A stretch of 64,000 bases of DNA, from the NCBI GenBank assembly GCA_964016885.1, contig OZ024744.1:94178001-94242000 (forward strand), in the 5' to 3' direction. Of the stretch, positions 456-61,621 are shown piece after piece. Position 1 is the stretch's first letter, and the number at the start of each line of letters is the position of its first letter. The notes below the pieces were generated by a model. It was given only the letters and a program-made list of their open reading frames with translations, was not told the DNA's origin and made no database searches. This DNA comes from Eledone cirrhosa (Eukaryota). Both the position numbers and the translations under genes were made by a program.

Positions 456-1129
456 CTGAATATTCAAAACATACCTTACTCTGTAAAGTTATGTTGGTAC
501 CACAAAACATCAAGCCCACAACTATAAAGTGGTCATGTAGGTGTCATAACAAAAAGCACCTAGCCCACACTGTAAAGTGGTCATGTAGGTGTCACAACAA
601 AAAGCACCTAGCCCACACTGTAAGGAGACACAGTAAAAAGGCTCCCAGTCCACACAGTAAATGTGGTTTGTGTTAGGAAGGACATCCAGTCATAGAAAAC
701 CAGCCAGAAACAGTCCTATACGAGCGAGACACCATCACCCAACCCAGCTTACCTCAAATGGGACAAACCTGTTTAACCCATGCTAGCATAGAAGATAGAC
801 GTTAAACGATGATGATGATACTTCAATTTTAGATCTATACATGACATTGGGAGCTAAGAGTCGAGGGCAGCCAATTAATAACTAAGCAGCTAGAACAAAA
901 CAGCTGAGACCTGAATTTTTCATATTCTTTTCATATGTAAGAGGACGGCTATTGTGGTTGGTTGTCACTGGTCATTGTCTGCCGCAATGCCTTTGCCATT
1001 TTGACCACGAGGCAACGCAGATGAAACACCGCTCTGACTCAGATGTAGAGTCTGTCACCTTCTCCCCTTCACCCCCCTTCTTTCTTTGATTATTAATCCT
1101 TGCCCTTTCCTTCCTTTTCCTCTCATTAA

Positions 1130-1480
1130 CTCTTTAGCATTTAAACCGGCCATATCTGGGCCAGAATTCTCTCACATCTTTCTTTTCAAATGTAACCGGC
1201 CATTGAAACTGATATTAAGGTATTGTTCTCAAAATAAATAACATCAAAATCTCATAGATTTGATATTATGTGAGATAAAGTGTTTACCACAAAAATACAA
1301 TAGTTAATATAGAATAATTGTTTCTACTTTTGGCACAAGGCCAGCAATTAACCAGTGTATTATTGGTACTTTATTTTATCGACCCCATAAGGATGAAAGG
1401 CAAAGTTAACCTCGGCGGGATTTGAACTCAGAATGGCAAGGGCCGTAACTCTATGCAGCAAAAATGTAAATGCTAAAGGG
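1130..1480. mobile_element. piggyBac-type MITE with nested minus-strand SINE (~1313-1460)
   Basis: TTAA flanks and TIRs C(T/C)CTTTAGCATTTA...TAAATGCTAAAGGG; SINE body lies inside. Confidence 0.8.
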
Positions 1481-2246
1481 TTAATAGTATTTTGCAAATC
1501 TACTTTCTTTTTCTTTATGTTTGACTAAACTCACCAACTATATCTTTGGTTCCATGAACAAACTAGCAATTGCCCACATAAAATATTGTCCCAGGATTCT
1601 GCCTGGAGATGATATTGTTATTGCTGTTGATGTTCTTGTAGTTGTTATAGGTAATACCTGCTGTTGTTATTAAGGTTGTAGTTGCTGTTATTATTATTGA
1701 TATTGACATTCTAGAGTGGTAGTGCAAGTAACATGAAAAAAAAAATACACCCAATACACCCTGTAATGTGTTGGTTGTCATAATAAAATGCACCTCAGTA
1801 CATCATGTAAAATGTTGGTGTCACAATAAAATACACCCAGCACTCGTTGTAAAGTGTTTGTGTAAGCCATGAAAAAAATGCACACAGTTCACTCTGTAAA
1901 GTGGGGTAGTGCTTGTGTCATGATAAACACACCAGGTACACCGTGGAAGGTGGTTGGTAATTAGGAAAGGGTACCCAGCCATAAAACCCATGCCAAATAT
2001 GGAAAATAATAAACAAATATGGGTCACACAGTTCAGATTGGTCCCAGGCTGTGAAAATATGTTCAATCCATGCCAGTATGGAAAGCAAGTGCAAAACACT
2101 GATGATGATGACAATGATGATGCTTACCGTTGTTATTGAGATTACCATTATTGCTTGCTTTCCTTGATTTATACTAGTAACATCTGTTTTTGTTGTTATG
2201 AGGTTTATTATTGTTACTATTATTATTATTATTATTATTACTTTCA

Positions 2247-2873
2247 AGGGTGTTGGATTGGCAGTATCGGTAGAGGGTTGGACGCCATGCTTTCTAGCAT
2301 AGTTACGTCCCTTTACAGTCTGAGTTCAAATCCTGCCGAGGTTAACTTTGCCTTTCACCCTTACTGGGTCGATAAAATAAAGTACCAGTAATGTACTGGG
2401 TAATTGCTGGCCTTGTGCCTAAAGTAGAAACAATTATTACTGTCAAGGGTGTTGGATTGGCAGTATTGGTAGAGCGTCAGACACCATGCTTTGCAGCATA
2501 GAGTTATGTCCCTTGGCGTTCTGGGCTCAAATCCCGCCAAGGTTAACTTTGCCTTTCATCCATATGGGGTCGATAAAATAAAGTACCAGTAATGCACTAG
2601 AGTAATTGCTGGCCTTGTGCCAAACGTAGAAACAATTATCGTTATTTTCAATGTCAGGGCGGTGGATTGGTAATATTGGCAGAGTGTCAGACAACATGTA
2701 TCGTGGCATAAAGTTACGGCCCTTTATGTTCGGAGTTCAAATCTCGCCATTTGCTTTGCCCTTCATCCTTACGGGGTCGATAAAATAAAGTACCAGTAAT
2801 ACACTGGGGCCGATTTAATTGACCTTCCCCTTGCCCCAAAATCGTTGGCCTTGTGCCTAAATCAAACAATTAT
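2247..2873 (+). mobile_element. Three tandem copies of tRNA-derived SINE family A
   Basis: A-box-like tggcagtatcggtagag, B-box gagttcaaatcc, conserved core gcctttcatccttacggggtcgataaaataaagtaccag, AT-rich tail aaacaattatt. Confidence 0.85.
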
Positions 2874-3787
2874 TAATTTCAATGTCATTGACATTTTGGG
2901 GTTTGTGTTGGTGTCCTAATGAATATTCATCATCATCATCATTATCATCATCATTTAATGTCCACTTTCAATGCTAGCAAGAGTTGGATGGGTCTACATT
3001 GACCAAGTCAGTAGTGAAGCGGGATTACTGATGTCCAAGACAGTCCTTGTGCCAAATGTAAAAACAATTATTATTATTGAATTTGCATGAACAGGGAAAA
3101 TTCTATTTAAACATACCTGAAAGATTTAGACTTGTTTTTGTTTATGTAACTACAGATAATGCATAAATATAAATAAGTCAAATTTAATACATATATATTG
3201 TACATACGCACATGTATATATATATATATATATATATATCACCTTGACCACCTTGACCGACCAGTCTGTCGGGCGCCAATCGGCTTATGAAGGATGGCAG
3301 CTGCATAAAAAAGTGCAGAGTGTTCAAAGTCGTTGTGAAGCCTTCGAGTGGAGAGAAGACCTGGGATGGGGTGATAATAAAAGCCGACCTTGGCCAATTG
3401 CACTTCTCAGAGGAGATGACACATGACTGGGATTTCTGGTGATATGCAGTAATACAGAAAACCCGACTTCTCACGGATACAACCTGAAGCATATGTACAA
3501 TATGCACCGACCCCATACACCCCATCTCTCACGCCAGCCCGCCCACACTGTAAAGTGGATGTGTAAAAGACATGGTAAAAAGCACCCAGGCCACACTGTC
3601 AATGTGGTTGGCGTTAGGAAGGGCATCAAGCCATAGAAGACTATCCAGAAACAGTCCTATATGAGCGAGACACGGTCACTCGACACAACTTGTCTCAAAA
3701 TAGGACCCGTCTAACCCATGCTAGCATGGAGGATGGATGTTAATAGATGATGATGATGATATATATATATTTAGAGAGAGAGAGAGT

Positions 3788-3921
3788 TTAAGAAGAATTG
3801 AAGTCAGTGTTGTAACATATGTACAAACTTTATTGACATGTTACATTTGTTATCGAAACAATTGTAAAATGCCAATAAAGTTTGTACATATACTGCAGCA
3901 CTGACTTTGATTTCTTCTTAA
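3788..3921. repeat. Imperfect ~134-bp palindrome containing the 3' half of a hammerhead ribozyme
   Basis: ttaagaagaa..aagtcagtg..gtacaaactttattg mirrored by caataaagtttgtac..cactgactt..ttcttcttaa; right arm starts GAAAC-aatt-GTA. Confidence 0.75.
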
Positions 3922-4070
3922 TCAATTTACACTCTGTGTACTACAGTCACCTTAACCTTAACTCAACTCTGGAATACAATCCAAACATGATGAACCATAT
4001 AACAGCATTGAGTGCTTCAAACGTTATGCCACCTCTAACTGTAGTTACAAACTTAACACACACACACACA

Positions 4071-4106
<36 letters not shown>

Positions 4107-4309
4107 TGTGTGTGTATAATAGACATGGTAAAAAAGGCTCCCAGCCCACACTTTAAATGTGGTTGGTGTTAGGAAGCGCATTCAGCCATAGAAAACCTGC
4201 CAGACACAGTCCTATACAAGCAAGACACGGTCACCTGATCAATCTTGCCTCAAGTGGGACAATTCCTGTCTAACCCATGCTAGCGTGGAAGATAGACATT
4301 AAACGGTGA

Positions 4310-4344
<35 letters not shown>

Positions 4345-4516
4345 ATTTATGTTTGGCTGTTTACCAGTGAGTAGTATAGTGCTTTCGCAGAATTAATATT
4401 CTAAAGTAAATTTTCTAGTCCGGCCTTCTGTTGTTTTAATGTATATATAAAAATAAAATTAGAATTTTATTTCTCGCCATAGCACAGCTGATACATAAAT
4501 GTAAGTATGCACACGT

Positions 4517-4549
<33 letters not shown>

Positions 4550-4560
4550 CACAAACATAT

Positions 4561-4810
4561 ATACATATGTATGGGTTATATCAAACATTAATAATAATGT
4601 TCGATTCGTTTGTAAACAAACGGCTAGATATGAAGCTGTGGCGTGTTGGTGACCGATCGTCACCTGTTTGTTCAACACTGGCTTTGAGGAACAATCTGAA
4701 CAAACAAATGACAATCGGTCACCAGCACGGCACAGCTTCATATCTAGCCGTTTGTTTACAAACGAATCGAACATTATTATTAATGTTCAATATAACCCAT
4801 ACATATGTAT
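4561..4810. mobile_element. Fold-back MITE with ~110-bp TIRs inside a (TA)n tract
   Basis: atgggttatatcaaacattaataataatgttcgattcg... mirrored by ...cgaatcgaacattattattaatgttcaatataacccat. Confidence 0.8.
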
Positions 4811-4845
4811 ATGTATATATATGTGTGTGTATATATATGTATATA

Positions 4846-4893
<48 letters not shown>

Positions 4894-4907
4894 CATTCAT
4901 TTCATTT

Positions 4908-4940
<33 letters not shown>

Positions 4941-4945
<5 letters not shown>

Positions 4946-5814
4946 CCACTATTAGCTGCTAAAGGGTTCTCCCTAAAAATGAAAGGCAGGTTGTACGATG
5001 CCTGCATACGAACAGCAATGTTGCATGGCAGTGAGACCTGGGCATTGTGTGCAGAGGATATACGCAGACTAGAGAGGAACGAAGCTTGCATGCTCCGCTG
5101 GATGTGTAACAGTAATATACGTGAACGGCAAAGCATAAACGAACTAAGGAAAAAATTAGAGATAAGAGGGATCAGATGTTGTTTACTCGAGAGAAGGCTA
5201 CGTTGGTATGGACACGTGATGCGCATGAAAGTCGATAGCTGTATAACAAAGTGCAGGGCAATAAAGATAGACGGTAGCCACGGAATAGGCAGACCTAGAA
5301 AAACCTGGGACGAGCTGATAAACTCCGACCTCACACACTTACACCTCTCCAAGACAATGTCACTGGACCGAGACCTTTGGCGGTACTCAGTAACAGAGAA
5401 GACCCGCCTTACCTAAATATATAGTAAAACCTACTCCAGCCAGTAGGCATCTCTAACAAAATACACCCCGTCCCACCACCACCACCCCCACCCCATCCAC
5501 ACCACCCCGTTCTATGTGAAGTTATGTTGGTGCCGCGCCATCCAGGCCGAAACAAATGAGATCGTGTAGGTGTCACGACAAAAAAACACACAGTCCACGC
5601 TGTAATGTGGCCGTGTAGGCAACACGGTAAAAACCTCCCAGACCCACACTGTAAATGTGGTTGGTGTTAGGAAGGGCATCCAACTGTAGAAAACCTGCCA
5701 GACAGTCCTATGCGAGCAAGACAATCACTCTTGCCTCAAGTGGACTACCCCCGTCCAAACCCATGCAAGCGTGGAACACGGACGTTAAACGTTGATGATG
5801 ATGATGATGATGAT
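4941..5814 (+). mobile_element. 5'-truncated RTE-clade LINE (ORF2 C-terminus, 3' UTR, (GAT)n tail)
   Basis: KGRLYDACIRTAMLHGSETW, RRLRWYGHVMR and GRPRKTW motifs; near-identical to 14845-15926. Confidence 0.9.
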
Positions 5815-6209: not shown

Positions 6210-6273
<64 letters not shown>

Positions 6274-6440
6274 GGAGGTGAGTTTTATTGTAGTACAATA
6301 AAGCAATGCAGATATCGGATAAGAAGCACTCTACAGTTTGTAGGACTGGAGTATAACTTTGAATAACTTTGAAATGTTTTGGCCAGTATTGGCCCAGGCC
6401 ATGTCTAACTTAATAGCACCACCATGTCTAACTTAATAGC

Positions 6441-6508
6441 AACACTTGTGGATAGTGCAGTTTTAAATCAACATATGTTGATTTAAAACTGCACTATCCA
6501 CAAGTGTT
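6441..6508. repeat. Perfect 68-bp palindrome
   Basis: aacacttgtggatagtgcagttttaaatcaacat|atgttgatttaaaactgcactatccacaagtgtt with no spacer; preceded by a short direct duplication of ccatgtctaacttaatagca. Confidence 0.95.
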
Positions 6509-6532
6509 TTTAACCTTCATATCATGTCCTCC

Positions 6533-6603
6533 TATTTTATCTGATGAAAACACAAATGTTATTGCATGATGATATTTGTTTTTGAAATGCGCATAATAAA
6601 ATA
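6533..6603 (+). ncRNA. Type I hammerhead ribozyme motif with minimal palindromic stem III (Penelope-LTR type)
   Basis: Stem I tattttat/ataaaata; CUGAUGA 6541-6547; ~16-bp stem II; GAAA 6584-6587; stem III atgcgcat; cleavage triplet AUA 6593-6595. Confidence 0.75.
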
Positions 6604-6933
6604 CATGGAACTCATTTAACCATCTTTTGATCTTATATATTATATATATATATATATATATACACATGTGTGCGTGTGCATACTTACATTAATATATATA
6701 AACACACACACATAAACAATCATATTTTTAGAAACATTGAGTGATTTATGAATTTTAGAAAATATGTCAGCTGAAAGTTAATAGCTTCGGCACAGGTTTT
6801 TGGCTATGAAAATAGTCTAACAAGTTGAGTATATAAAAGACCAGGGACAGAAAAAAGTGGAATATATATTTTGTGTGTGTGTGTGTGTGTAGTGGATAAA
6901 TGATATTCTTTTTGGGATGAATGATAAAAAGAA

Positions 6934-11874: not shown

Positions 11875-11999
11875 ATATGAAAAGATTCAGGACCCCGACG
11901 GCTGAGCTCTGGCCGTTTCGACAGCTAGATCCGAACTGTTCGGATCTAGCTGTCGAAATGGCTGGAGCTCAGTCGTCGAGGTCCTGAATCTTTTCATAT
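11875..11999. repeat. 125-bp near-perfect palindrome; each arm carries GAAA-stem III-GUC (hammerhead 3' half)
   Basis: Centre at 11937 (gaac-t-gttc); minus strand of the left arm reads GAAACggc..gccGTC and the right arm reads GAAAtggctg..cagtcGTC. Confidence 0.8.
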
Positions 12000-12926: not shown

Positions 12927-15926
12927 CACTTGATCACCTATAGATCGGGGGAACACACAAGCCAGGTAGATTATATCCTTACCAGAAGACGTGACAGAGT
13001 GTCTATTGTTAACACTAAATCCCTCCCCCATTAAGAATGCACCTCCCAACATAGACTGATAATTAGCGACCTCATAGTCAGGACAAGACGTACTAGACAG
13101 CAGAAGAGGACTATCCTCAGGAGAAAAATATGGAAGCTAAAGGACCCCATAGCCAGAAATAAATTTCAAAGCATATTACTTGATGCTTTCGACAGTAAGG
13201 AAGAGCAATTAGAGTCGTATAATATAGAGGAACAGTGGGAATTCCTGAAAGCAAACCTACAGACGAAGTCTGTGGCTGGAGCAGGCCTGTAGGTAGGAGG
13301 AGAGTAACATGGTGGTGGAACAGTAAGGTGGAGGAGTCAATTAAGGCCAAAAAGCAGGCTTGGAAAGTATGGCGGGATGGGGGAAGTAGAGAAGACTATC
13401 AAGTGGCCAGGAGGGAAGCTAGGAGACAAGCATGTTCTACAACGTGAGGACCAAAAACGTGAGGTGTTCAGGATTGTTAGGCAATGTGTCAAGGAAAACC
13501 GTGATATTGTCGGGGAGAAGTGTGTACTTAATGATGATGGCATACTTGCCATCACTGACGCTGATAAGAAGGTAGCTTGGAAGTGTCACTACGAAAGGCT
13601 TCTAAATGAGGAGAACAAATGGGAGAAAGACAGTCTCCCCCACATCGACCCAATAGAGGGACCAGCAGTGTTAGTCGAAGGTAGTATAATAAGTAAGGCA
13701 ATCAAAGATATGAAGACGGGTAAGGCGGCTGGGCCTTCGGAAATAGTTGCTGAGATGCTGAAAGCCTCTGGAACGGTGGGACACACCATGGTCACCCGGA
13801 TAGTAAACCAAGTCATACAGAATGGGGTTGTTCCAAAGGACTGGCATAGCAGTATCATCATTAACTGTTACAAGGGTAAAGGAGATGCCCTAGATAGGTG
13901 TAACTATAGAGGCATTAAATTAATCGACCAGGTCATGAAGGTCACGGAAAAAGTAATAGCGCAACTAATCAGAGAGAGAATTGATCTAGATGAAATGCAG
14001 TTCGGGTTTGTGTCAGGCAAAAGTACCACAGATGCTCTTTTCATTGTACGACAACTCCAGGAGAAGTACAACTCCAGAGAAGTAAACCCCTATACTTAGC
14101 TTTTGTTGACTTGGAGAAAGCCTTCGACAGAGTCCCCCATTCCATTATCTGGTGGGCTCTTAGAAAACTAGGTATTGATGAATGGCTTGTGATAGCTATA
14201 CAAGCCATGTATAAAGAAACAGTCAGCAAGGTTAGAATTAACAACGAATATAGTGAAGAGTTTAGCGTAAAAGTTGGTGTCCATCAGGGCTCTGTTCTTA
14301 GCCCCCTACTATTTATTATTGCCCTTCAGGCTATAACAGAGGAGTTCAAGACCGGCTGCCCATGGGAACTCCTATACGCAGATGATCTAACGCTCATAGC
14401 TGAATCAATGACCGAACTAGAGAAGAAATTCCAAACATGGAATCAAAAGGCCTTAAAATTAACCTGGCTAAGACTAAAGTTCTAGTTTGTAGGAAAGAAA
14501 ATAAGGCGGCGGTCCCTTCCGGGAAATGGCCATGCTCAGTGTGTAGAAAAGGCGTAGGTAGAAACTCCATTTTATGTCCCAAATGCAAAGTATGGGTGCA
14601 TAAAAGATGTAGTGGGATCACAGGTAAGCTAACTAAGAACATAGATTTTACATGTGGCCGGTGCTCTGGTGCAATAAGTAGCAGCAAGTGCCCACAAAAT
14701 ACTAGCTCTTTCAATTGCGCAGAGGGTTCCATAGAAATAGTGGACAGCTTCCGTTACCTGGGTGACAAAATCAGCAGTGGGAGAGGGTGCTCTGAAAGTA
14801 CAGTAGCTAGAGTCAGAACTGGATGGAAAAAGTTCAGAGAGCTTATACCACTATTAGCCGCTAAAGTGTTCTCCCTAAAAATGAAAGGCAGGTTATATGA
14901 TGCCTGCATACGAACAGCAATGCTGCATGGCAGTGAGACCTGGGCATTGTGTGCAGAGGATATACGCAGACTAGAGAGGAACGAAGATTGCATGCTCCGC
15001 TGGATGTGTAATAGTAATATACGTGAACGGCTAAACATAAACGAACTAAGGAAAAAATTAGAAATAAGAGGGATCAGATGTTGTTTACTCGAGAGAAGGC
15101 TACGTTGGTATGGTCACGTGATGCGCATGAAAGACGACAGCTGTATAACAAAGTGCAGGGCAATAAAGATAGACGGTAGCCACAGAGTAGGCAGACCCAG
15201 AAAAACCTGGGACGACATGATAAATTCCGACCTCACACGCTTACACCTCTCCAAGACAATGTCACTGGACCGAGACCTTTGGCGGTACTCAGTAATAGAG
15301 AAGACCCGCCTTACCTAAATACAAAGTAAAACCTACTACAGTCAGTAGGCATCTCTAACAAAACACACCCCCGTCCCACCACCCCCAGCCCCATCCACAC
15401 CGCCCCTTTCAATGTAAAGTTATGTTGGTGCCACAACATCCAGGCCGAAACAAATGAGATCGTGTAGGTGTCACGACAAAAAACACACAGTCCACGCTGT
15501 AATGTGGCCGTGTAGGCAACACGGTAAAAACCTCCCAGTCCCACACTATGTGGTTGGTGTTAGGAAGGGCATCCAGCTGTAGAAAACCCGCCAGACAGTC
15601 CACGCTGTAATGTGGCCATGTAGGCAACATGGTAAAAACCTCCCAGCCCCACACTGTAAATGTGGTTGGTGTTAGGAAGGGCATCCAGCTGTAGAAAACC
15701 CGCCAGACAGTCCACGCTGTAATGTGGCCGTGTAGGCAACACGGTAAAAACCTCCCAGCCCCACACTGTAAATGTGGTTGGTGTTAGGAAGGGCATCCAG
15801 CTGTAGAAAACCCGCCAGACAGTCCTATGCGAGCAAGACAATCACTCTTGCCTCAAGTCGGAAAACCCCCGTCCAAACCCATGCAAGCGTGGAACACGGA
15901 CGTTAAACGTTGATGATGATGATGAT
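12927..15926 (+). mobile_element. RTE-clade LINE, 5'-truncated in the APE domain, frameshifted; RT plus PHD-like finger, 3' UTR, (GAT)n tail
   Basis: TYRSGEHTSQVDYIL (APE end), KAAGP, YKGKGD..NYRGI, QFGF..GKSTTDA, DLEKAFDRV, VHQGSVLSPLLF, YADD (~14375), C4HC3 finger at 14533-14664, RWYGHVMR; ORF broken into at least 4 pieces. Confidence 0.95.
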
Positions 15927-18829: not shown

Positions 18830-18859
18830 ATTAAATGAATTTCAAATTTTATTATTATT

Positions 18860-19903
18860 ATCTCCACCTCTTCCTCGACGGTGATCAGGTGTGGTCGCCG
18901 TTTGCTAGACACGTCTTTCCCCAGCTCGTCTCCTTGACGGAGCTGCAGTCCTGGGTCAAGCGAAGACCGAGAGGGACCGCTTGCAGACTGGAATGTCTTC
19001 AGGCGCTCACAGCCCTCGACCAATCGGGCAATGTGATCGGTGGAAACTCTACCTTGGCGTTCTATAGAGGATTAATGCAGGGGAAGAGTGACGACGTACT
19101 TGGAGAAACTCTAGGCGTCGACGAAAATCAACTAGCCAATCTCTTCGGAAGGACTTTCGGGCCGGGGCCTATGGACAACTTCCAGAAATCCCTGGCCCAG
19201 CACTGCTACCGAGGAGCTTTGCCAGTTCGGGATAAACTCTACAGGCATGGAGGTGCTGTCAACCGGGCATGTCCGAGATGCGCGCAGGGCGACAAAACCG
19301 TCCTGCACGCACTCGTCCAGTGTCCGAGCATTGCTGACTTGTGGGTTTATGTCGAACACCTGCTGTCACGTGTAGGACGGATCCAGCTATCAGCTGAGTC
19401 CATCGTGAGGATTGCCCCGCCCTCTTCCTTTAGCCGGGAAGAGCAGGCAATTTTTATCTGTCTGGTGGCCATGGCGAAAGAGATAGTATGGTGGACACGT
19501 TTGAAAGGGCTGAAGACGAGCACTTACCTCTTCATTTGAAAAGGAAAATCAGGGTAGAGAGGGAAGTGCTCTCTTCCCAGCATTTTGTTGAAAGATGGGT
19601 GAGAGAAGCAAGTATGGCCCAAGTGAATGGGCCTACTCTGAGTATGTGTCTTTAAATTAAAGGTGGAAAACTGAGAGAGGGCACTTGCCCTGGTGGTCAG
19701 GGTCACTGTGGCCTTTTAATGGGCTTTCTCCACAAATGTCCTTCGGAAGTCTCCCTCCTATTGGGGAATTTTTCATTGTTATTTTTATTACATCCTGTTT
19801 TCTGTTTTTTTTACACGCAGAAATGCCCATTTGTACCGTCCTGTATTGTCCTGTACTGTCCTTAATGTCTACTTTATATAAACCCTTGTGGTTAATAAAG
19901 AAA
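18860..19903 (+). mobile_element. Tx1/L1-clade LINE 3' fragment (zf-RVT CCHC domain)
   Basis: RGALPVRDKL..CPRC..TVLHALVQC zinc knuckle, AKEIVWWTR; 3' end aataaagaaa. Confidence 0.85.
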
Positions 19904-19927: not shown

Positions 19928-20117
19928 GGTGGTGGATTGGCAGTATTGGTAGAGGGTCGGACGCCATGCTTTGACGCATAGAGTTACGGCCCTTGCCATT
20001 CTGAGTTCAAATCCCGCCGAGGTTAACTTTGCCTTTCATCCTTACGGGGTCGATAAAATAAAGTACCAGTAATACACTGGGTATTTGCTGGCCTTGTGCC
20101 TAACGTAGAAACAATTG
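19928..20117 (+). mobile_element. Full-length SINE family A copy with 15-bp TSD
   Basis: Flanked on both sides by tgtaaaatattatta. Confidence 0.9.
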
Positions 20118-21050
20118 TGTAAAATATTATTATTATTATTACTATTATTATTATTATTATTATTATGTAAATAAAATTGTTATGTCGAGAAGAAATAACT
20201 CGTCTTTTTTTTTGGGGGGGGGGGGGCCCAGAAAAGAACCGACAAAGCAAACTAACATGACGCCTATCCCGCATATGTCGCAAAAAAAACCAATATATTT
20301 GTCAATTTCAAAGCACTGACATTTAAAGATGAAATCGAAACTATTAATTTAACAATAAATAAATAAATAAATAAATAAAGAGATTGCACAATAATTTAAA
20401 ATCACAGAAATTAACAAAGCCAATGTATATAAAACAATTTATAATAAAATAGTCAAATCATTTAGAAACGTTTCTTCAACTATTAATAATAAGTGTTTCT
20501 ATTTTAGGCACAAGGCCAGCAATAACCCAGTACATTACTGGTACTTTATTTTATCGACCCCGTAAGGAGGATGAAAGGCAAAGTTAACCTCGGCCGGATT
20601 TGAATTCAGATCGTAAAGGGACGTAACTATGCTGGAAAGCATAATAATAATATCAAGTCTTTACTTTAAATATATTTTCTAAAAATAATCTTACAAACTA
20701 TAGGAAAGTTAGTTTTTTTATGATACTTAATTATTTTATTAGTAATATTATTGTTGTTGTTACATTCAAAATAGTGACACAAACAAGAATGAAATATTTT
20801 TGAAACAATCTAATACAGCACAGCACATCCTATGCTTTCTTTTTATATATATATATATATATATATATAATTACGCATCCTATGCTTTCTTTCTTTATAT
20901 ATATATATATAAGCAGAAGGGATATTCAATTTGTTGTTGGTAGTTCAACAAATATATATATTTATAACTGATTCAAAGCACTCGACAATTTTCTGGAGTA
21001 TAATATCAATGATATTAAATAAATGGAAACTATATTTATAAAACCATATT

Positions 21051-21111
21051 TATTCTATTACATATATTTCAAGGGTACCAACATTTTGGTACGCTATCGT
21101 CAGATAAAATA
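21051..21111 (-). ncRNA. Type I hammerhead ribozyme motif (left arm)
   Basis: Reverse complement: tattttat CTGACGA tagcgtaccaa-aatg-ttggtaccctt GAAA tatatg TA atagaata; GUA triplet; first stem II pair is mismatched. Confidence 0.65.
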
Positions 21112-21242
21112 CGAAGTGTGTTTTCTAAATTTTGACATAACCAAGGAGAATATACCTTAACGGTTCAAGTTTTTCCTCAGGAATAACTTGAACCGTTAAG
21201 ATCTCCTTCCTGGATATGTCAATATTTATAAAACAAACTTTG

Positions 21243-21303
21243 TATTTTATCTGATGAGAGCGTATCAAAGTTTTGGTACCCTTGAAATATATATAATAGA
21301 ATA
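21243..21303 (+). ncRNA. Type I hammerhead ribozyme motif (right arm)
   Basis: tattttat CTGATGA gagcgtatcaa-agtt-ttggtaccctt GAAA tatata TA atagaata; stems I and II pair; palindromic stem III. Confidence 0.7.
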
Positions 21304-21439
21304 AATATGGTTTTATAAATATAGTTTCCATTTATTAATATCATTGATATTATACTCCAGAAAACTTGTCGAGTGCTTCAAACCAGTTATAAACATTTAT
21401 ATTTGTTGAATTACCAACAAATTAAATATCCCTTTTGCT

Positions 21440-21465
21440 CATATATATATATGTATGTATATATA

Positions 21466-21520
<55 letters not shown>

Positions 21521-21585
21521 GCACACACACACATATATATATATATATATACATACCCACACACATATACGTACATATATATATA

Positions 21586-21663
<78 letters not shown>

Positions 21664-21795
21664 TATATATATATACATACCCACACACACATATGTATCT
21701 ATCTATCTATATATGTTAAGTATTTTCGTATATTTATATATATATGCATGTGTTTGTGTATATATATGTGTGTGTGCGTCTGTGTGTTAATATAG
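21440..21795. repeat. Compound (TA)n/(CA)n/(TG)n microsatellite
   Basis: Directly visible; source of spurious YIYI ORFs. Confidence 0.95.
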
Positions 21796-22928
21796 TCAGA
21801 CACACTTAGACACCACCAAGAACAATATAGTGATACATAGATACACACACACATTCACTCACATGTCCTCCCTTTTTCTACTTCCTAATCTATCTACTTG
21901 TACTCTCCTGGCGAAGGACTAACGTCCGATACGTTGAACCTCTTCGTTGTAGTACACCTGAGCACCGATAAAATAAAGTACCAGTAATGCACTAGGATAA
22001 TTGCTGTCCTGGTGCTAAAAGTAGAAACAATTATTTTCTCTCTTTCATCCAAACTGTGAACCTCATAATACTAATTGTTTTTGTTTGTTTTGTATCTCAA
22101 ACATGAATGAATGTATTTTTATTATGTGTGTGAGAGAGAGAGAGAGAGTCCCGGGTTCAATCGGAGGTAACCACAGTAAGTAAGGTACTCAATACATTAA
22201 TAGAATGTAAGCATCAAGTTTGATATAGAAATGAACTTCGTTGATGATTTCTTTCTAATGAAACAGTTCTAGTCCTATAGAAGCCATTTCTATATTAAAC
22301 TTGATATATATATATATATATGTGTGTGTGTGTCTTTAACCATTAGTCAATCGTGTTATTGTTATTATTTAGCCTAGGGTCAACATTGTTCTCAAGCAGA
22401 CGACCTATAACCAAAAGTATTTTTGTATATTTATGACTAGATTACAAGAATCGTCATTTCTTCTTTCTCTCCCTTTCTTTTTAAAGACAGCATGGTAGGC
22501 ATTCTTTTTTTTTTCTAGACTCTCTATATACCTAGAACGACATTATGCAATGTGTTATTCCCTTTTTGTTTTAATTTTCTTTGTTTGTTAGATAATGTTG
22601 TTTTTTTAAGACAATAGGATATGATTTGAGCTCTATATTTGGCTGTTATTTCTAGCAGGCCGAGCAACTGCATAAAAAGCTTCATTCGTTAATAATTCCA
22701 AATCAACCTGTTCCACTCACCACTCCCGGTTTGAAAAGCATTCGTATTCTACACACCTCCACTTAGTTACGGACAACAAACCAGAAATACAGTCTGTTTA
22801 TTGTGTGCTTTGCAGATCTAACATGATTTAACCCTTTCATTACTCATGAAGCCCTCGTGTTCTTCGAAAAAAATAAATAAATAAAATTAATCATATAAAT
22901 ATAAATACTGTTTAAATATTATCCTTAC

Positions 22929-25357: not shown

Positions 25358-26448
25358 CGGGGTGGTCCGAAAGTCTTGTCACCCCCTACCAAACAGTAAT
25401 GAGAAACAGTTTATGTTCCCATCGCAGTATCGTACTCTTCGGGGGAGCTGGTTTGCTGAATCTTGCAGTGAAGACATGTCGCACATACTCCATGCTCTTG
25501 CCAGAATGCACATGATCATGTGTCCATACACTTGCAAGCAGCCTCTCTTCCAAACTGTAGGAGCTCTGAAATAGAAAATTATATTATTATTATATATTAT
25601 ACTAGCAGTGGTATCCGGCGTTGCACGGGATAATGTATTGTGAAATATATAACCGCCATAGCTAAGCTTAGTATTGCCACAACCACGGCTGGCAAAGAAG
25701 TAAGGGTCTGGTGGTACGTAAGTAAGCAACACTGTAGCTTAAAACGTGAGGAAGAAGTTGTGTGCACTTACCAACTGTTTGGGGAATGAGTGTGAGATTT
25801 GTCTTGTGCAAGGGTGGCTCAATAACCGGAGGCAGCAGACAGCCAGACATACAGACAGATATTATAAGGGCGCGTTCTGGACGCAGAGCGAATTGTAGGA
25901 AGTGACGTAATGCAGACAGCCAGACATACAGACAGATATTAAAAGGGCGCGACGTTATATGTATGTATCTATCTAAAAAGAGAAAGACTAAGAATTATAG
26001 AGAGAGATCGCTTAATGCAGTCCCTAGAGCATTGAAAATTTGAAAATTTATTTTGCCTAGAATACTCCCTGAAACATAAGTATTACATGTGTAAAGTTTG
26101 AAAACAGTCGGTTGGGTGCTTCTCGAGTTTTAGGGATTCAAACTCACACACACACACACAGACAGACATCCTCAGTTTTATATATATAGATTATCAAAAC
26201 AAAAAATTGTTTCTGCTTCTGGCACAAGGTCAGCAGTTACCTAGTGCATTACTGGTACTTTATTTTATCGACCCCGTAAGGATGAAAGGCAAGGTTAACC
26301 TTGGCGGGATTTGAACTCAGAATATAAAGGGCCATAATTATGCTGCAAGCATGTTGTTTGACGCTCTACCGATACTGCCAATCCACCTATTGACACAAAA
26401 AATAACGAAAGTTAAAGCAATATGTGACAAGACTTTTGGACCACCCTG
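25358..26448 (-). mobile_element. Internally deleted Tc1/mariner transposon with nested Helitron and SINE
   Basis: TIRs TA|CGGGGTGGTCCGAAAGTCTTGTCAC...GTGACAAGACTTTTGGACCACCCTG|TA; minus-strand HTH remnant EERLLASVW..MEYVRHVFTARFSKPAPPKSTILRWEHKLF at ~25395-25550. Confidence 0.8.
25602..26190 (-). mobile_element. Non-autonomous Helitron
   Basis: A|TCTATATATATAAAAC 5' end, subterminal hairpin tatccggcgttgcacgggata and CTAG|T 3' end on the minus strand. Confidence 0.8.
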
Positions 26449-26471
26449 TAGAATTTGTGATGTTATTTATA

Positions 26472-27266
26472 CGGTGGATTGGCAGTATCGGTAGAGGGTC
26501 GGGCGCCATGCTTTCCAGCATACTTACGTCCCTTTACGATCTGAGTTCAAATCCCGCCGAGGTTAATTTTGCCTTTCATCCTTACTGGGTCGATAAAATA
26601 AAGTACCAGTAATGCACTGGGTGATTGCTGGCCTTGTGCCTAAAGTAGAAACAGTTATTTATACAACTGTGAATAAAAGAAAATGTGAACTTTAAATACA
26701 TTCGGCGGCGCTTTTTCGTTTCTGGGTATGAAACTGCTTGACTTGTAGTATTCGGAAATTTCCAAATCAAAGTGTAAGAGCTTTGTTATATTTGGGGTGG
26801 GTTACATTGTTATTACATTGTCAGAAATATATAGTAAAAAAACACTCAATGTTTGGTTGGGGTTGGTTTTCGTTTCAGTATATTTTATATTTCTATAATT
26901 AATTCAGCTGGCAATGTTTATCATTGATTGATCAACAGTTAAAAAATATAGATATAAATATAGTTTCTCTGAGTAAGAGTTTTTCTTGATAATACAAAGG
27001 AGATGGGGTTATGGCCGAAAAATAAGTGTTGTGAATTTATTTGCAGTTTTCTGTTTTTGTTTTGTGTTGTTTCATTGTTTTGTTGTGTTATCATACAATA
27101 TGACATTTTCATCATTCAGACGGATCAACCAAATATTTTGCCATTGTAATTCAAAATTAAGGTGAGCAAAATATGTCAATTGACTAGCCAGGTGTATAAA
27201 ATGTGAACAGATGAAAAAAAAGGGAGTGAGAGCGGAGGGATGAGAGAGAACAATTAACAACAAATA

Positions 27267-27338
<72 letters not shown>

Positions 27339-28451
27339 ACCCCTTCCCCATTCTCTCAGTTAACTTTGCCTTTCATCCTTACGGGGTCGATGAAATAAAG
27401 TACCAGTAACGCACTGGTGTCGATTTAATCGATTTTCCTCTCCCATCACCAAATTGTGGCACCATTATTTAATAAAAGGGCGGTGGATTGGCAGTATCAG
27501 TAGAGGGTCGGACACCATGCTTTCCAGCATAGTTACGTCCCTTTATGATCTGAGTTCAAATCCCGCCGAGGTTGACTTTGCCTTTCATCCTTATGGGGTC
27601 GACAAAATAAAGTACCAGTAAAGCACTGGGTATTTGCTGGCCTTCTGCCTAAAGTAGAAACAATTATTTAATAAAAAGGTGGCGAATCGACAGAGTCAGA
27701 TAGAATGCTTTGCAGTATTCGTTCCGGCTCTCTGCTCTCTGAGTTCAAATCCAACTGAGGTCAACTTTGCCTTTCATCTATTCGAGGTCGATATAAAAAT
27801 ACCAATCAAGTACTAGGGTCGATTCTTCCTCTATATCTCTTTCTTACTTCCATTCTTTTTTTTTTTTATCCTTCTCTGGAAGAAACCTACTATATTCAAA
27901 CCTGAGGAGGAGATGGGCTCCGCTGGGTTGAAAGGTTCCAAAGAAGCGCCGTATGTCAATGCGGCGCCCCTACAAATTCCCCAGGAGTTACGGGCCATGC
28001 ATACCCAAAGGACGGTGTATTTGGCAGTATCGGTAGAATGTCGGACATGTCTTGCGGCATATAGTTACATTTTATTCACCTGGCTAGTTCAAATCCCTCC
28101 GAGGTTAGCTTTGCCTTTCATCTTTACGGGGTCGATAAAATAAAATACCAGTGACACACTGGAGTCGATTTTATCGATATCTTCCCACCCCCGTCCCCAC
28201 CATAGAAAAAAATGGTTGACCTTGAGTCTAAACCAGAGATCATTATCTACATACAATTAAATAATTGTTTCTACTTTAGGCACAGGGCCAGCAATTACAC
28301 AGTGCATTACTGGTACTTTATTTTATTGACCCCGTAAGGATGAAAGGCAAAGTTAACCTAGGCGGGATTTGAACTCAGATCGTAAAGGGACGTAACTGTG
28401 CTGGAAAGCATGGCGTCCGACCCTCTACCGATACTGCCAATCCACCGCCCT
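26472..28451. mobile_element. Cluster of SINE family A copies (26472-26657 +, 27360-27820 +, 28010-28240 +, 28266-28451 -) and (CT)n at 27272-27337
   Basis: Family consensus; the 28266-28451 copy has a 16-bp TSD catacaattaaataat. Confidence 0.8.
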
Positions 28452-43214: not shown

Positions 43215-44365
43215 CTGAGAGGAAGCTATCCCCAAAATGTTGAGCAGAAGTTGTGAACTCATACATTGCTCCATTATCTATCACTGACTGTTACTTGCCC
43301 CCATCCATGCCTCACCAAATTGGAGCACTTGCTCTTCAACTTCTTGTGGAAGGGACAGGCTCCACTAGTGCAGCTGTCCATCAGATGCCAGCTCCCTCTA
43401 TGGCTGGACATGTTGTGGCTGATGGTGTGCAAACATGTGCTGAGGCTACAGCACTCTAGATAATCTCATCTCTTGGACTGAGCTGCAGCTATGGGTCAAG
43501 TGAAGACCAAGACTGGATGCTTGGCATTCAGATTGTTCCCAGGTGCTCACAGCCAGTCAGGCAATGCAGTCAGTGGAATTCCCAGCCTGGCATTCTATAG
43601 AGGACTGGTGGTGTGCAAGAGTGACAACGTTCTTAGAGAAAATCTGGGCATCAACGAAATTGAACTTACCAGTCTGTTCTGGAGAACTTTAAAGCCAGGG
43701 ACTATAGATAATATTCAGAAATCACTGGCTTGGCAGTGCTACCAAGGGGGTACTGCCGGTTTGAGATAAACTCTACAGACATGGAAGTGCCGTCGGACAG
43801 AGCTGTGTGAGATGTATGCAGGGCGATGAAATCATTCTGCTCACCATTCATTGCTGAATTGTGGAGTTTTGACAAGCGTGACATGGTCACCTGACCTAGC
43901 ATTGCTCACAACAGGATAGCTCGTCTAAACCATGCCAGCATGGAAAAAAGTACATTAAACAGTGATGATGATGTGGAACAGCTATTATCATATATAGGAC
44001 AGAACCCACAATTGACCGAGTCTATCATGAGGATTGTCCTGCCACCTTCTTTTGGTCAGGAAGGGCAGGCAGTTTTCCTCTATCTGATGGCTGTAACAAA
44101 GGAAGTTGAGTGGTGGAAGCAGCTGAAAGGACTGAAGACAGACACTTTCCTCTTTGGCCAAGCCCTCATCACCTTTTTCAAGTTCCACTTGGAAAAGAAG
44201 GTGAGGGTGGAGAGAGAACCGTTGCCCCCCCCCAATACATTTGTTAAAAGTATGGGGGGTGGGGGCAGCACTTCTCTCTCCACCCTCACCTTCTTTTCCA
44301 AGTGCAACTTGAAAAAGGTGATGAGGGCTTGGCTAAAGAGGAAAGTGTCTGTCTTCAGTCCTTTC
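43215..44365 (+). mobile_element. Degraded Tx1/L1 fragment ending in a snap-back inverted duplication (44125-44365)
   Basis: Homologous to the 18860-19903 and 45206-46203 copies (LAFYRGL..KSLAWQCY..KEVEWW); ~110-bp arms mirror around ~44245. Confidence 0.8.
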
Positions 44366-44513
44366 TTCACAGCCCGAGCATCATTCCTTCATAGTCAGCC
44401 TATGAACTTTTTCGGCCGACCCTCGTATGTATGTAGTCTTCCACAGAGTCTAATGGCAGAGAAAGGTGCAGGACACACACGAGTCGTGTTTTTTAGGGAC
44501 TCGTGTTAAGACT

Positions 44514-50690: not shown

Positions 50691-51129
50691 TAATATATAT
50701 ATATATATATCATGGCTTAATGGTTAGAGCATTGGGCTTGCAATCGAAAGGTTGTGAGTTCAATTCTCGGACTGGGTGATGTGTTATTTCCTTGAGTAAG
50801 ACACTTTATTTCACATTGCTCCAGTTTACTCAGCTGTAGAAATGAGATGATAGGGATTGGGGTCCCTATCATTCCACTCCAAAGTGGTCATGGAGGTGCC
50901 ACGGCAAAAAAGCACCCAGCACTCACTGTAAAAGAGGTTGGTGTTAGGAAGGGCATTCATCTGTAGAAATCAAGCCAGAATCAGTTCCCGTATGAGCAAG
51001 ACAAGGTCAGCTGACCGGACATTGCCCACAAGACAACCCGTCTAACCCATACTAGCATGGAAGAACAGACGTAAAAAACGGTGAAAAACATGATGGATTC
51101 TCCAATCAATTTTAACATATAAAGATCTG

Positions 51130-53099: not shown

Positions 53100-55400
53100 A
53101 ACAACAAGCATTTTAAGGTCATGCTGGGGTTAACCTTGCAGGCCTCATAACATACTTCTCTACTTTTCCCCATCATCTGCATCCTCCTCAACAACATTCT
53201 GATTTTCATTTCATCTTCCATTATATTTAACCATGTCTTTTTTTGGTCTTCCTCTGCTTCCTTCCACATATATTCCCACCACTCCTCTCACCCAGTCACT
53301 TTCATTTTTTCTCAACATATAACCCAACCATATCATTCCATTTCTCTTCATAACATTCATCACTGGCTCCCATTTACATTACCAGTCACTTTCATCCTTC
53401 CTCAACACCTGACCTAACCATCTCACTCCATTTGCCATTGGCTCCTATTTCAATCCTTCCTCTCACCCAGACACTTTCACCCTTCCTCAACACCTGACCC
53501 AACCATCTCACTCCATTTGCCATTGGCTCCTATTTCAATCCTTCCTCTCACCCAGACACTTTCACCCTTCCTCAACACCTGACCCAACCATCTCACTCCA
53601 TTTGCCATTGGCTCCTATTTCAATCCTTCCTCTCACCCAGACACTTTCACCCTTCCTCAACACATGACCTAACCATCTCACTCCATTTGCCATTGGCTCC
53701 TATTTCAATCCTTCCTCTCACCCAGACACTTTCACCCTTCCTCAACACCTGACCCAACCATCTCACTCCATTTGCCATTGGCTCCTATTTCAATCCTTCC
53801 TCTCACCCAGTCACTTTCATCCTTCCTCAACACATGACCCAACCATCTCACTCCATTTGCCATTGGCTCCTATTTCAATCCTTCCTCTCACCCACTCACT
53901 TTCATCCTTCCTCAACACATGACCCAACCATCTCACTCCATTTGCCATTGGCTCCTATTTCAATCCTTCCTCTCACCCACTCACTTTCATCCTTCCTCAA
54001 CACATGACCCAACCATCTCACTCCATTTGCCATTGGCTCCTATTTCAATCCTTCCTCTCACCCAGTCACTTTCATCCTTCCTCAACACATGACCCAACCA
54101 TCTCACTCCATTTGCCATTGGCTCCTATTTCAATCCTTCCTCTCACCCAGTCACTTTCATCCTTCCTCAACACATGACCCAACCATCTCATTCCATTTCT
54201 CTTCACAACATTCATCACTGGTTCTATTCCCATCATTCTTCTGCAAATCATTGTCTTCCTCTCTCTCAGCAATACTCCACTCATCCACCAAACCATTCTC
54301 ATTTCTATTCTTTCCAACCTTCTCTATTGTTTAACCCATTAGCATTTAAACCGGCCATATCCGGCCAGAATTCTCTCACTTCTTTTTGTTCAAACTGGCC
54401 ACTCATACTGATCTTAAGGTATTGTTCTCAAAGTAAATAATATCAAAATCTTATAGATTCGAATTTATATGGGGTAAAACTTTTACTGTGAAAATTTAAT
54501 AGTAAATATAAAGTAATGTAAATGCTAAAGGGTTAATGTTTACCATCCATGTCTTTTCCCCATAAATCACGGCACATCTCACACATGCACTAAACACCTA
54601 TCCCTTCCATTTAAGCACCATTCCCCTCCACATTAGCAAATCACTCAGTTCCTGGAATTTCTTCCATGCACATCTCACTCCAGCTACAATCACAAAGTTT
54701 GATACATGGTAACAAAATGTTTTCACACCTTCCATCTTCACACCATTCCCGAGATCCAGCTCAACATCCTCTCCATCTGTAATATCCTCCATACACACTT
54801 TACACTTAAATGTAGCTGCCACATTATTTAATAATCCCTTCACACCACTACATTCTTAATATACCTACCCAGTGTATATCTTAACTATAATAAAGAAAGG
54901 AGTGCAGGACTGCGTCCAGAATATAATTTTTTATCCTGTTTGTAAAATAAGTTGGATTACTTTGAATAAATAATGAATGAATATTACATAATTTATTTGT
55001 TAAATTTCGTAGCTTTTGATTTTATTGCTTATTTAAAGATTCACATCCTAACCAAATAAACAACTTCTTCTTATCCCTATAATAATCCCTCTTGTAATAT
55101 CTCACAATAAAAAAGTACATCAGCTGTTCCTTTTCCAGCACAAATCCAAATTTCATCAATATTCACATTTTCCTCCTATTCTTTTCTCTAATACATTTTC
55201 CAGTATATTCCTTCCATGTTCCAATTGCTTAATTGGTCTATATTAACCACAGTCTAAAGGATCACCTTTCACTTTGTACAAGGTGATGAGAGTACGCAAC
55301 TCCCAATCTGCTGAAAAACCGACTTTTTTCACTATTAACCTATAGATATCTGTCATCCTCTCCACACTTCAACTTCCTGCTGTCTTTAACATATCACCCA
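53100..55400 (-). mobile_element. Degraded RTE LINE interrupted by an 85-bp tandem array and a piggyBac MITE (54335-54532)
   Basis: EMRMVWWM..MRWLGHVLRK, AGVRCAWKKFQEL and YK.KGDP motifs. Confidence 0.75.
53381..54195. repeat. 85-bp tandem repeat (~9.5 copies) derived from the RTE RWLGHVLR region
   Basis: Units start at 53466, 53551, 53636, 53721 ... 54146. Confidence 0.95.
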
Positions 55401-61300: not shown

Positions 61301-61407
61301 AGTTGTTATAAAATAACTTTTAATAAGTTGTTATAAAATAACTTTCAATGAGTTGTTATAAAATAACTTACTCTGAGCTGTTATAAAATAACTTTCAATA
61401 AGCTGTT
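58311..61407. repeat. Satellite array, 24-25-bp unit TTGTTATAAAATAACTTTCACTGAG, roughly 125 copies
   Basis: Uninterrupted tandem units with recurring variants; diverged units at both edges. Confidence 0.97.
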
Positions 61408-61621
61408 AGGAGATGGCTTTCTCTAAACTGATAAGAAATTACTTTCTCTAAGCTGTAAAGAAGTGATACCTTCGCAGAACGGCTATGAAATGACGTTCTT
61501 TACCTTGTAAATTTTTAGTCATATCTATTATGATGTAATAAGCTAAAAAATACACATACACATTGTGTATATGTATATTTATTTTATTTATATATATGTA
61601 TGTGTGTATATACATATATGA

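Follow-up and report, generated by a model that had tools for sequence, protein, structure and literature searches.

A 528-nt palindrome with two hammerhead motifs in Eledone cirrhosa: paired ends of a Hydra-clade Penelope-like retrotransposon, likely joined head to head during insertion

The window analyzed here, a stretch of 64,000 nt of Eledone cirrhosa DNA, contains at positions 20912-21439 a palindrome of 528 nt that is predicted to fold into a single hairpin of -316 kcal/mol (Table 1). When 20912-21176 was aligned globally with the reverse complement of 21177-21441, 235 of 271 columns (86.7%) proved identical, and the two arms meet around 21178 in the 7-mer CCTCAGG. On either side the palindrome is bordered by (TA)n, and among the ORFs of the 64-kb window none of at least 170 aa overlaps it. 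An initial annotation had described a fold-back of about 530 bp centred on 21178, without an ORF and set in (TA)n; arm identity and the predicted hairpin prove the fold-back to be real, and its surroundings are as described.

Several other repeats occur in its vicinity. A short local duplication of about 40 nt plus a TA run lies immediately to the left (20826-20911). Copies of a tRNA-like SINE are found around the palindrome at 19930-20116, 20491-20642, 21950-22032 and 50711-50774, those at 19966-20116 and 20491-20642 being mutually inverted and the one at 50711-50774 giving a weak Rfam tRNA match. Minus-strand blastn of the window against itself showed six further self-inverted stretches (4521-4854, 26201-26660, 28009-28451, 44125-44365, 11875-11999 and 3788-3921), some of which may be microsatellites or SINE pairs. 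Satellite arrays extend over 58312-61408 (125 copies of a 25-nt unit) and 53382-54198 (9.6 copies of an 85-nt unit). ORF fragments at 13308-15315, 4796-5413, 18835-19536 and 43895-44506 resemble LINE-type retrotransposons, of which they presumably are remnants.

Table 1. Features of the palindrome and of the sister-family insertion in the window (pLTR, pseudo-LTR; PLE, Penelope-like element; reference, pLTR reference positions).
Feature	Position	Strand	Remarks
Left (TA)n target tract	20844-20911		two TA runs within a short local duplication
Left arm, PLE pLTR	20912-21177	-	outward-reading; reference ~8-270; ends at the long (tailed) end
Left-arm short-end site	20999-21013	-	TA-like; read through in the window copy
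Left minimal type I hammerhead	21051-21111	-	predicted cut between 21059 and 21058; helix III loop UAUAUG
Head-to-head junction	21175-21181		near-palindromic 7-mer; arm starts at reference 7 and 8, within the 5' hotspot of the family
Right arm, pLTR	21178-21439	+	outward-reading; reference 7-270; ends at the long end
Small hairpin at the pLTR 5' edge	21178-21213	+	-7.7 kcal/mol, not beyond shuffles
Right minimal type I hammerhead	21243-21303	+	predicted cut between 21295 and 21296; helix III loop UAUAUA
Right-arm short-end site	21340-21354	+	read through in the window copy; stop for 48/83 sampled forward arms
Tail, short end to long end	21347-21439	+	~90 nt; full-length elements continue to the ATG ~47 nt on
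Right (TA)n/(CA)n tract	21440-21679		
Sister-family insertion	6271-6635		perfect 68-nt palindrome at 6441-6508; short end right, long end left

Each arm holds one outward-facing minimal type I hammerhead, as had been proposed, and both the motif and its conservation confirm the pair. In a motif scan both cores exhibit an 8-bp stem I, CUGA(U/C)GA, a 26-nt stem II and GAAA; helix III consists of a self-complementary 8-mer, and UA stands at the cut. The two cores hence have everything that defines a minimal hammerhead of type I: CUGANGA, GAAA and UH, the stems I and II, and a palindromic helix III. The palindromic, dimer-type helix III and an RNA 5' end at 21296, both named in the initial annotation, agree with the self-complementary 8-mers and with the cut predicted on the plus strand. 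The first pair of stem II in the left core is U-U, a variant common to other loci. Across 70 other loci and the window, 76 distinct motif matches were collected in which 7 or all of the 8 stem I pairs form; helix III is self-complementary in 74 of them, and the ends of stem II vary on both sides between subfamilies.

A comparison with Rfam, suggested along with the initial annotation, returned no hammerhead in the 64-kb window at gathering score and one weak tRNA-like match. The isolated 73-nt cores are no better folded than shuffles (z -0.32 and -1.59), and closing the two-pair helix III by force costs 3.5 kcal/mol. As expected, the Rfam miss and the ordinary core stability fit minimal hammerheads with a helix III of two pairs. 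Since neither Rfam nor fold stability gives support, the ribozyme assignment is based on the motif and its conservation; the motif is conserved in the source elements, and cleavage is a prediction from the sequence. Because the cores lie on opposite strands, they cannot dimerize in cis. A read-through transcript would contain a single sense ribozyme trapped inside the long duplex, so that self-cleavage of the whole element, as originally envisaged, appears unlikely. In the accessible parts of the literature, PLE hammerhead motifs are described as cleaving weakly and only as dimers (PMC4209133), and hammerhead cleavage with the protein is reported as well (PMC11167929).

Each arm is almost certainly the pLTR of a Hydra-clade PLE, because other copies carry the arm on into a 1.2-kb UTR and an ORF encoding reverse transcriptase (RT) and GIY-YIG. 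The order in locus L057 is inverted arm with 760 nt of UTR, RT, GIY-YIG, 1.2-kb UTR and arm. An arm was found within 4 kb at 19 of the 20 RT loci examined; it lies on both sides of the ORF in L102 and before it in L099, L103 and L112. The 5' arm copies continue past the long end into the ATG, and 29 of 83 position-ordered forward arms start upstream of reference position -12, many of them deep within the shared UTR. The RT motifs YYSSI, GSSDSA and LYxDD plus NVVY..YVGAT share a single frame, which reaches 699 aa, SDKT and CxCX5C are present in all three scanned ORFs, CxLC..EE..N..CRH is recovered in L107, L114 and other loci when frameshifts are bridged, and the N-terminal motif of the parent ORF is LRWC or LRWR. 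Copies of the family are inserted in (TA)n.

According to the available part of PMC8557442, the Hydra clade is marked by DKT, a CxCX5C linker, CxxC and CxH around E/N, hammerheads and (TA)n targets. N-terminal and RT stretches of the parent protein resemble, by eye, those of Hydra-1_Obim (sequence from the supplement of PMC8557442). A search of the parent ORF against Pfam and PDB gave no match, and the assignment to the clade is based on motifs instead of a tree. The Neptune clade, considered at first because of a motif, was dropped in favour of the Hydra-clade description given in the same part of PMC8557442. The link to Penelope pLTR hammerheads drawn in the initial annotation was thus right, as the arm adjoins an RT/GIY-YIG ORF; the supposed kinship with retrozymes is not supported, the arm being the end of a protein-coding PLE. 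Besides these features, a different PLE-like element with Pfam matches to RVT_1 and GIY-YIG was noticed beside a family copy (L059:4075-6667, minus strand). The hairpin of the pLTR is preceded, at reference -30 to 10 (e.g. L040:1415-1455), by many pyrimidines in a row and then CAG, similar to a 3' splice site, and TCACT in the pLTR resembles the initiator described for rotifer pLTRs.

The genome, searched over 3.0 Gb in 1,796 contigs, contains 2,064 exact matches to a hammerhead 24-mer and 24,328 to a 32-mer behind the cut, i.e. more than 24,000 arms. Two head-to-head cores 105-165 nt apart occur at 1,489 loci with one exact pattern, reversed controls giving 0. The two-armed form is consequently no single-copy accident, the outcome that would have spoken against the initial annotation. 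Contigs from three sequencing runs on the right arm show a high-copy polymorphic repeat with a few opposite-strand joints.

Forward arms end at two sites, both of them TA-like: 48 of 83 stop at the short site, 30 at the long site about 90 nt further and 5 elsewhere. The first DNA search comprised the best 40 of 4,744 candidates, a set in which two-armed and long/long copies are too frequent; because of this bias of the best-ranked set, the counts were redone on position-ordered samples. These were drawn from the first part of one chromosome-scale contig by exact-match patterns, and two of the loci (L157 and L158) look like one duplicated locus. For the two-hammerhead palindromes, 40 out of 50 listed were analyzed, the other 10 being 7 sampled earlier and 3 skipped. 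The count of inverted pairs leaves out L115, a local hairpin, and three loci whose inverted match is confined to the far UTR. On C1, a spacing of about 5.2 kb between matches on one strand, at first considered as tandem elements, is explained by host DNA that is duplicated in tandem.

An inverted partner accompanies the forward arm at 41 of the 83 loci, and these pairs follow a rule: 32 combine a short with a long end, compared to two long/long and one short/short pair, with an atypical end in six. The 40 two-hammerhead palindromes, which represent many subfamilies and were scored by script, comprise 30 short/long, 6 short/extended, 4 short/short and 0 long/long cases; by eye, two of the four short/short palindromes show one extended arm. 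Unequal ends were therefore obtained in 36 of 40 palindromes and two tailed arms in none (binomial p 2e-7 against 0.5). The palindrome centres vary as well, with 106-154 nt between the cores and differences in sequence. The expectation that copies keep both arms and fixed ends is accordingly borne out for the arms, at 1,489 loci, and not for the ends.

Of the 83 forward arms, 44 begin at reference -12 to 25, and this 5' hotspot is situated well upstream of the cut at 124. Inspection by eye of 30 loci anchored behind the cut showed the core retained upstream in 27 and a start at the cut in 0. For 9 of the 41 pairs, the start of the inverted piece lies past the end of the forward piece, so that the two do not overlap, and 6 further loci retain just a short inverted stub of the long end. 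Arms of one locus usually share a subfamily. The arm-to-arm distance within a locus has a median of 0.043, compared to 0.195 between loci, and is 0.000 in 4 of 40 loci; in a cross-subfamily test, at most 8 of 80 other arms were closer than the partner in 31 of 40 loci. Within one young subfamily, where the arm test has low power, the partner was nearest on both sides in 5 of 39 loci.

The symmetry of the window copy, with its two tailed arms, is a minority form. Both arms reach the long end, and their starts correspond to reference positions 7 and 8. Of the 8 subfamily-B markers (common to L006 and L024), all 8 are present in the left arm and 0 in the right arm, and 13 of the 24 derived differences in the window copy were found in at least 5 other loci. 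The arms most likely come from two templates. Among the best-ranked matches, the long/long copies L002, L004, L006 and L007 have arms 1.6-5.4% apart; given these four copies with concordant arms, a long/long form need not mean two templates.

A second hammerhead in the window (6533-6600, helix III loop UGCGCA) belongs to a younger Hydra-type PLE family, hereafter sister family, the left arm of this copy being interrupted by other sequence. The sister family comprises 7,194 arms of one variant, and 563 loci have an identical 36-nt centre. Its long copies possess a native CATATG at the palindrome centre; many short copies begin at this CATATG, and in some of them bases are added or 5' pieces repeated. 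In two variants, 17 of 30 and 11 of 30 arms extend into the UTR. One short and one long arm were observed by eye in 15 of 15 centre-anchored loci (13 by script). Among the 100 matches listed, 34 neighbours within 6 kb are head-to-head, 1 is tail-to-tail and 0 are same-strand. The head-to-head spacing is bimodal, with 15 pairs at 88-133, 19 at 948-4973 and none between. Copying of the sister-family palindrome as a whole was considered and rejected, as the fixed centre coincides with the native CATATG of long copies; we attribute it to a fixed RNA start combined with a self-complementary 6-mer. Centres with a 5' segment copied two or three times, or with 2-6 extra bases, were noted in L249, L261, L281, L300-L303 and L315, and such repeated or added bases are expected of template jumps at the RNA 5' end.

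With good confidence we conclude that the window palindrome consists of two pLTR ends lying head to head in (TA)n, which were likely joined in the course of a single insertion, both cut ends having been primed on element RNA. For two-end priming as such, the case is reasonably good: short/long pairing, non-overlapping pieces, arms of the same subfamily, the 5' hotspot and the bimodal sizes point towards two-site priming of both DNA ends. Palindromes would then likely be rebuilt at each insertion and not represent a novel ribozyme element that copies itself. What the copies show directly is the end pairing, the starts and the sizes; from these we infer the biochemistry of priming. The endonuclease would cut both strands in (TA)n, and the two 3' ends would prime at the short and the long site of a single uncleaved RNA. 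Priming on the 5' pLTR copy would let both cDNAs run off at the RNA start, as placed by the insertion ends, and joining by microhomology could result in palindromes of 430-530 bp; priming on the 3' pLTR copy would give kilobase-long inverted insertions. In the case of the window copy, two RNAs of different subfamilies may each have been primed at the long site. The hammerheads would be passengers of the pLTR, predicted to cleave poorly and as dimers.

For a PLE assayed in vitro, both strands are cut and then extended, two internal start sites define the tail and hammerhead cleavage is dispensable, as stated in the accessible part of PMC11167929. Some observations weigh against the proposed course. 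Arms covering the same 170 nt would require that one RNA is copied twice. High arm identity might also be caused by fold-back copying or by later gene conversion (11 shared changes in L004). Further, the PLE studied in vitro primed without target homology in the experiments available to us (PMC11167929), whereas both ends here are TA-like.

The strongest competitor, in our judgement unlikely as a general explanation, concerns the same element and derives the mirror arm from self-priming: the cDNA or an antisense template would form a hairpin at the pLTR 5' edge and copy itself. Head-to-head junction palindromes in rotifer Penelope elements are so interpreted (PMC3846280, available part), the pLTR 5' edge is able to form a hairpin, the native 6-nt palindrome of the sister family lies at the centre, and nearly identical arms occur at many loci, as the 4 of 40 at zero distance illustrate. 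Plain fold-back cannot give the non-overlapping inverted pieces of the 9 pairs, to which the 6 loci with a long-end remnant only are added. The discordance of the window arms at all eight subfamily markers also contradicts it, and the short/long rule is not predicted by fold-back alone. Fold-back remains an explanation for part of the copies.

The symmetry of the window copy could, in principle, have arisen after insertion, if conversion or recombination had swapped one arm of a short/long insertion for sequence of another locus. Long/long forms are rare (2/41 and 0/40) and donors plentiful, as the genome contains over 24,000 arms. The left arm differs, however, from the right one over its full length, it exhibits a clean long-site end in (TA)n, and the junction falls within the normal 5' hotspot; we therefore regard a later exchange as rather improbable.

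Far less probable is the non-autonomous symmetric ribozyme element of the initial annotation, a fold-back relative of retrozymes that would be transcribed through, self-cleaved and reinserted whole. The 1,489 short two-hammerhead loci, the conserved hammerheads and the exact 36-nt centre of 563 sister-family loci would be in accordance with it. Yet the centres of the family vary over 106-154 nt, the ends are unequal in 36 of 40 palindromes and the arms of the window copy represent two subfamilies, all of which contradicts a symmetric element copied as a unit. The same variants occur in long ORF-bearing copies (29/83, 17/30 and 11/30 run upstream), 0 of 30 copies start at the cut, and among the 100 sister-family matches listed no head-to-tail neighbours within 6 kb were observed. 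Even the fixed centre of the sister family equals the native CATATG of its long copies. Copying of the palindrome as a whole unit is thus largely refuted. If the palindrome were a MITE or a DNA transposon of the fold-back type, targeted to TA and ending in long inverted repeats, its long inverted repeat, the TA flanks and the missing ORF would be accounted for, but such an origin has next to no probability in view of two alternative ends used asymmetrically (36/40 unequal) and variable 5' truncation, and is refuted by the continuity with the RT/GIY-YIG ORF.

Returning to two-end priming, a tailed arm retains the pLTR start and both priming sites. RNA transcribed outward from it might regenerate the whole palindrome with Hydra protein acting in trans, which we consider a doubtful extension. 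If true, part of the 1,489 palindromes, and of the sister family's 563, would form a non-autonomous lineage whose symmetry is rebuilt and not copied. In the two sister-family variants examined, a palindrome-only lineage was not found.

As an object, the window palindrome is ordinary, a truncated remnant from a known retrotransposon clade whose arrangement is known too. Both hammerhead pairs on opposite strands and pLTRs in inverted order have been published before (PMC4209133, PMC3846280 and PMC8557442, as far as accessible). A literature search with most subscription papers outside its reach found no paper stating the short/long end-pairing rule. The origin of PLE inverted repeats and tails is given as open in the available part of PMC8557442, the leads being self-priming (PMC3846280) and initiation at two sites (PMC11167929) in the portions of those papers at hand. 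The value of the family lies in a large natural experiment on PLE insertion, to which the short/long pairing adds a clue that gives exact sites. Additionally, thousands of inverted repeats of 170-260 bp could supply dsRNA pathways if read through.

The comparisons that follow refer to the parts of the cited sources that were accessible. With the Hydra clade and Hydra-1_Obim the family shares an RT with C-terminal GIY-YIG, DKT, CxCX5C and CxxC/CxH around E and N; the hammerhead, the (TA)n target, the inverted 5'-truncated copy and the one-end tail are likewise found in this clade (PMC8557442). For PLEs in general, truncated copies that are inverted and bear a tail on one side are the norm (PMC8557442). 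Differences from the clade as described there are the size of the unit, about 3.7 kb with a 1.2-kb 3' UTR compared to generally <3 kb, the tail of about 90 nt compared to 30-40, RW followed by C or R instead of the K of RWK, and a clear pLTR, whereas Hydra-1_Obim is listed without one (PMC8557442).

Non-LTR retrozymes are similar in their type I hammerhead, PLE pLTR origin and non-coding nature (bioRxiv 10.64898/2026.07.22.740005). They consist, however, of head-to-tail tandem units each with a hammerhead (bioRxiv 10.64898/2026.07.22.740005), an arrangement absent here: the window copy and the sampled loci are head-to-head, with cores on opposite strands. The window palindrome is not a retrozyme.

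In Schistosoma mansoni, opposite-strand minimal hammerheads about 100-700 bp apart were interpreted in 2014 as truncated PLEs (PMC4209133). Palindromic helix III and predicted dimer cleavage are common to these pairs and the present ones, which belong to another PLE clade and host (PMC4209133). The accessible passages on the Schistosoma pairs mention neither how ends are combined nor where centres lie. Penelope of Adineta vaga exhibits the head-to-head inverted pLTR, a tail on one pLTR, junction palindromes and the Inr-like TCACT (PMC3846280). Self-priming was proposed there from few copies (PMC3846280), whereas the thousands of copies considered here favour priming at both ends. The green anole element Poseidon PAc, studied in vitro, also has a hammerhead upstream of two RT start sites that define the tail (PMC11167929). 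Its start sites lie in the ORF, at an AC-rich stem-loop and, in the accessible text, without target homology (PMC11167929), in contrast to the TA-like sites in the 5' UTR of the Eledone family.
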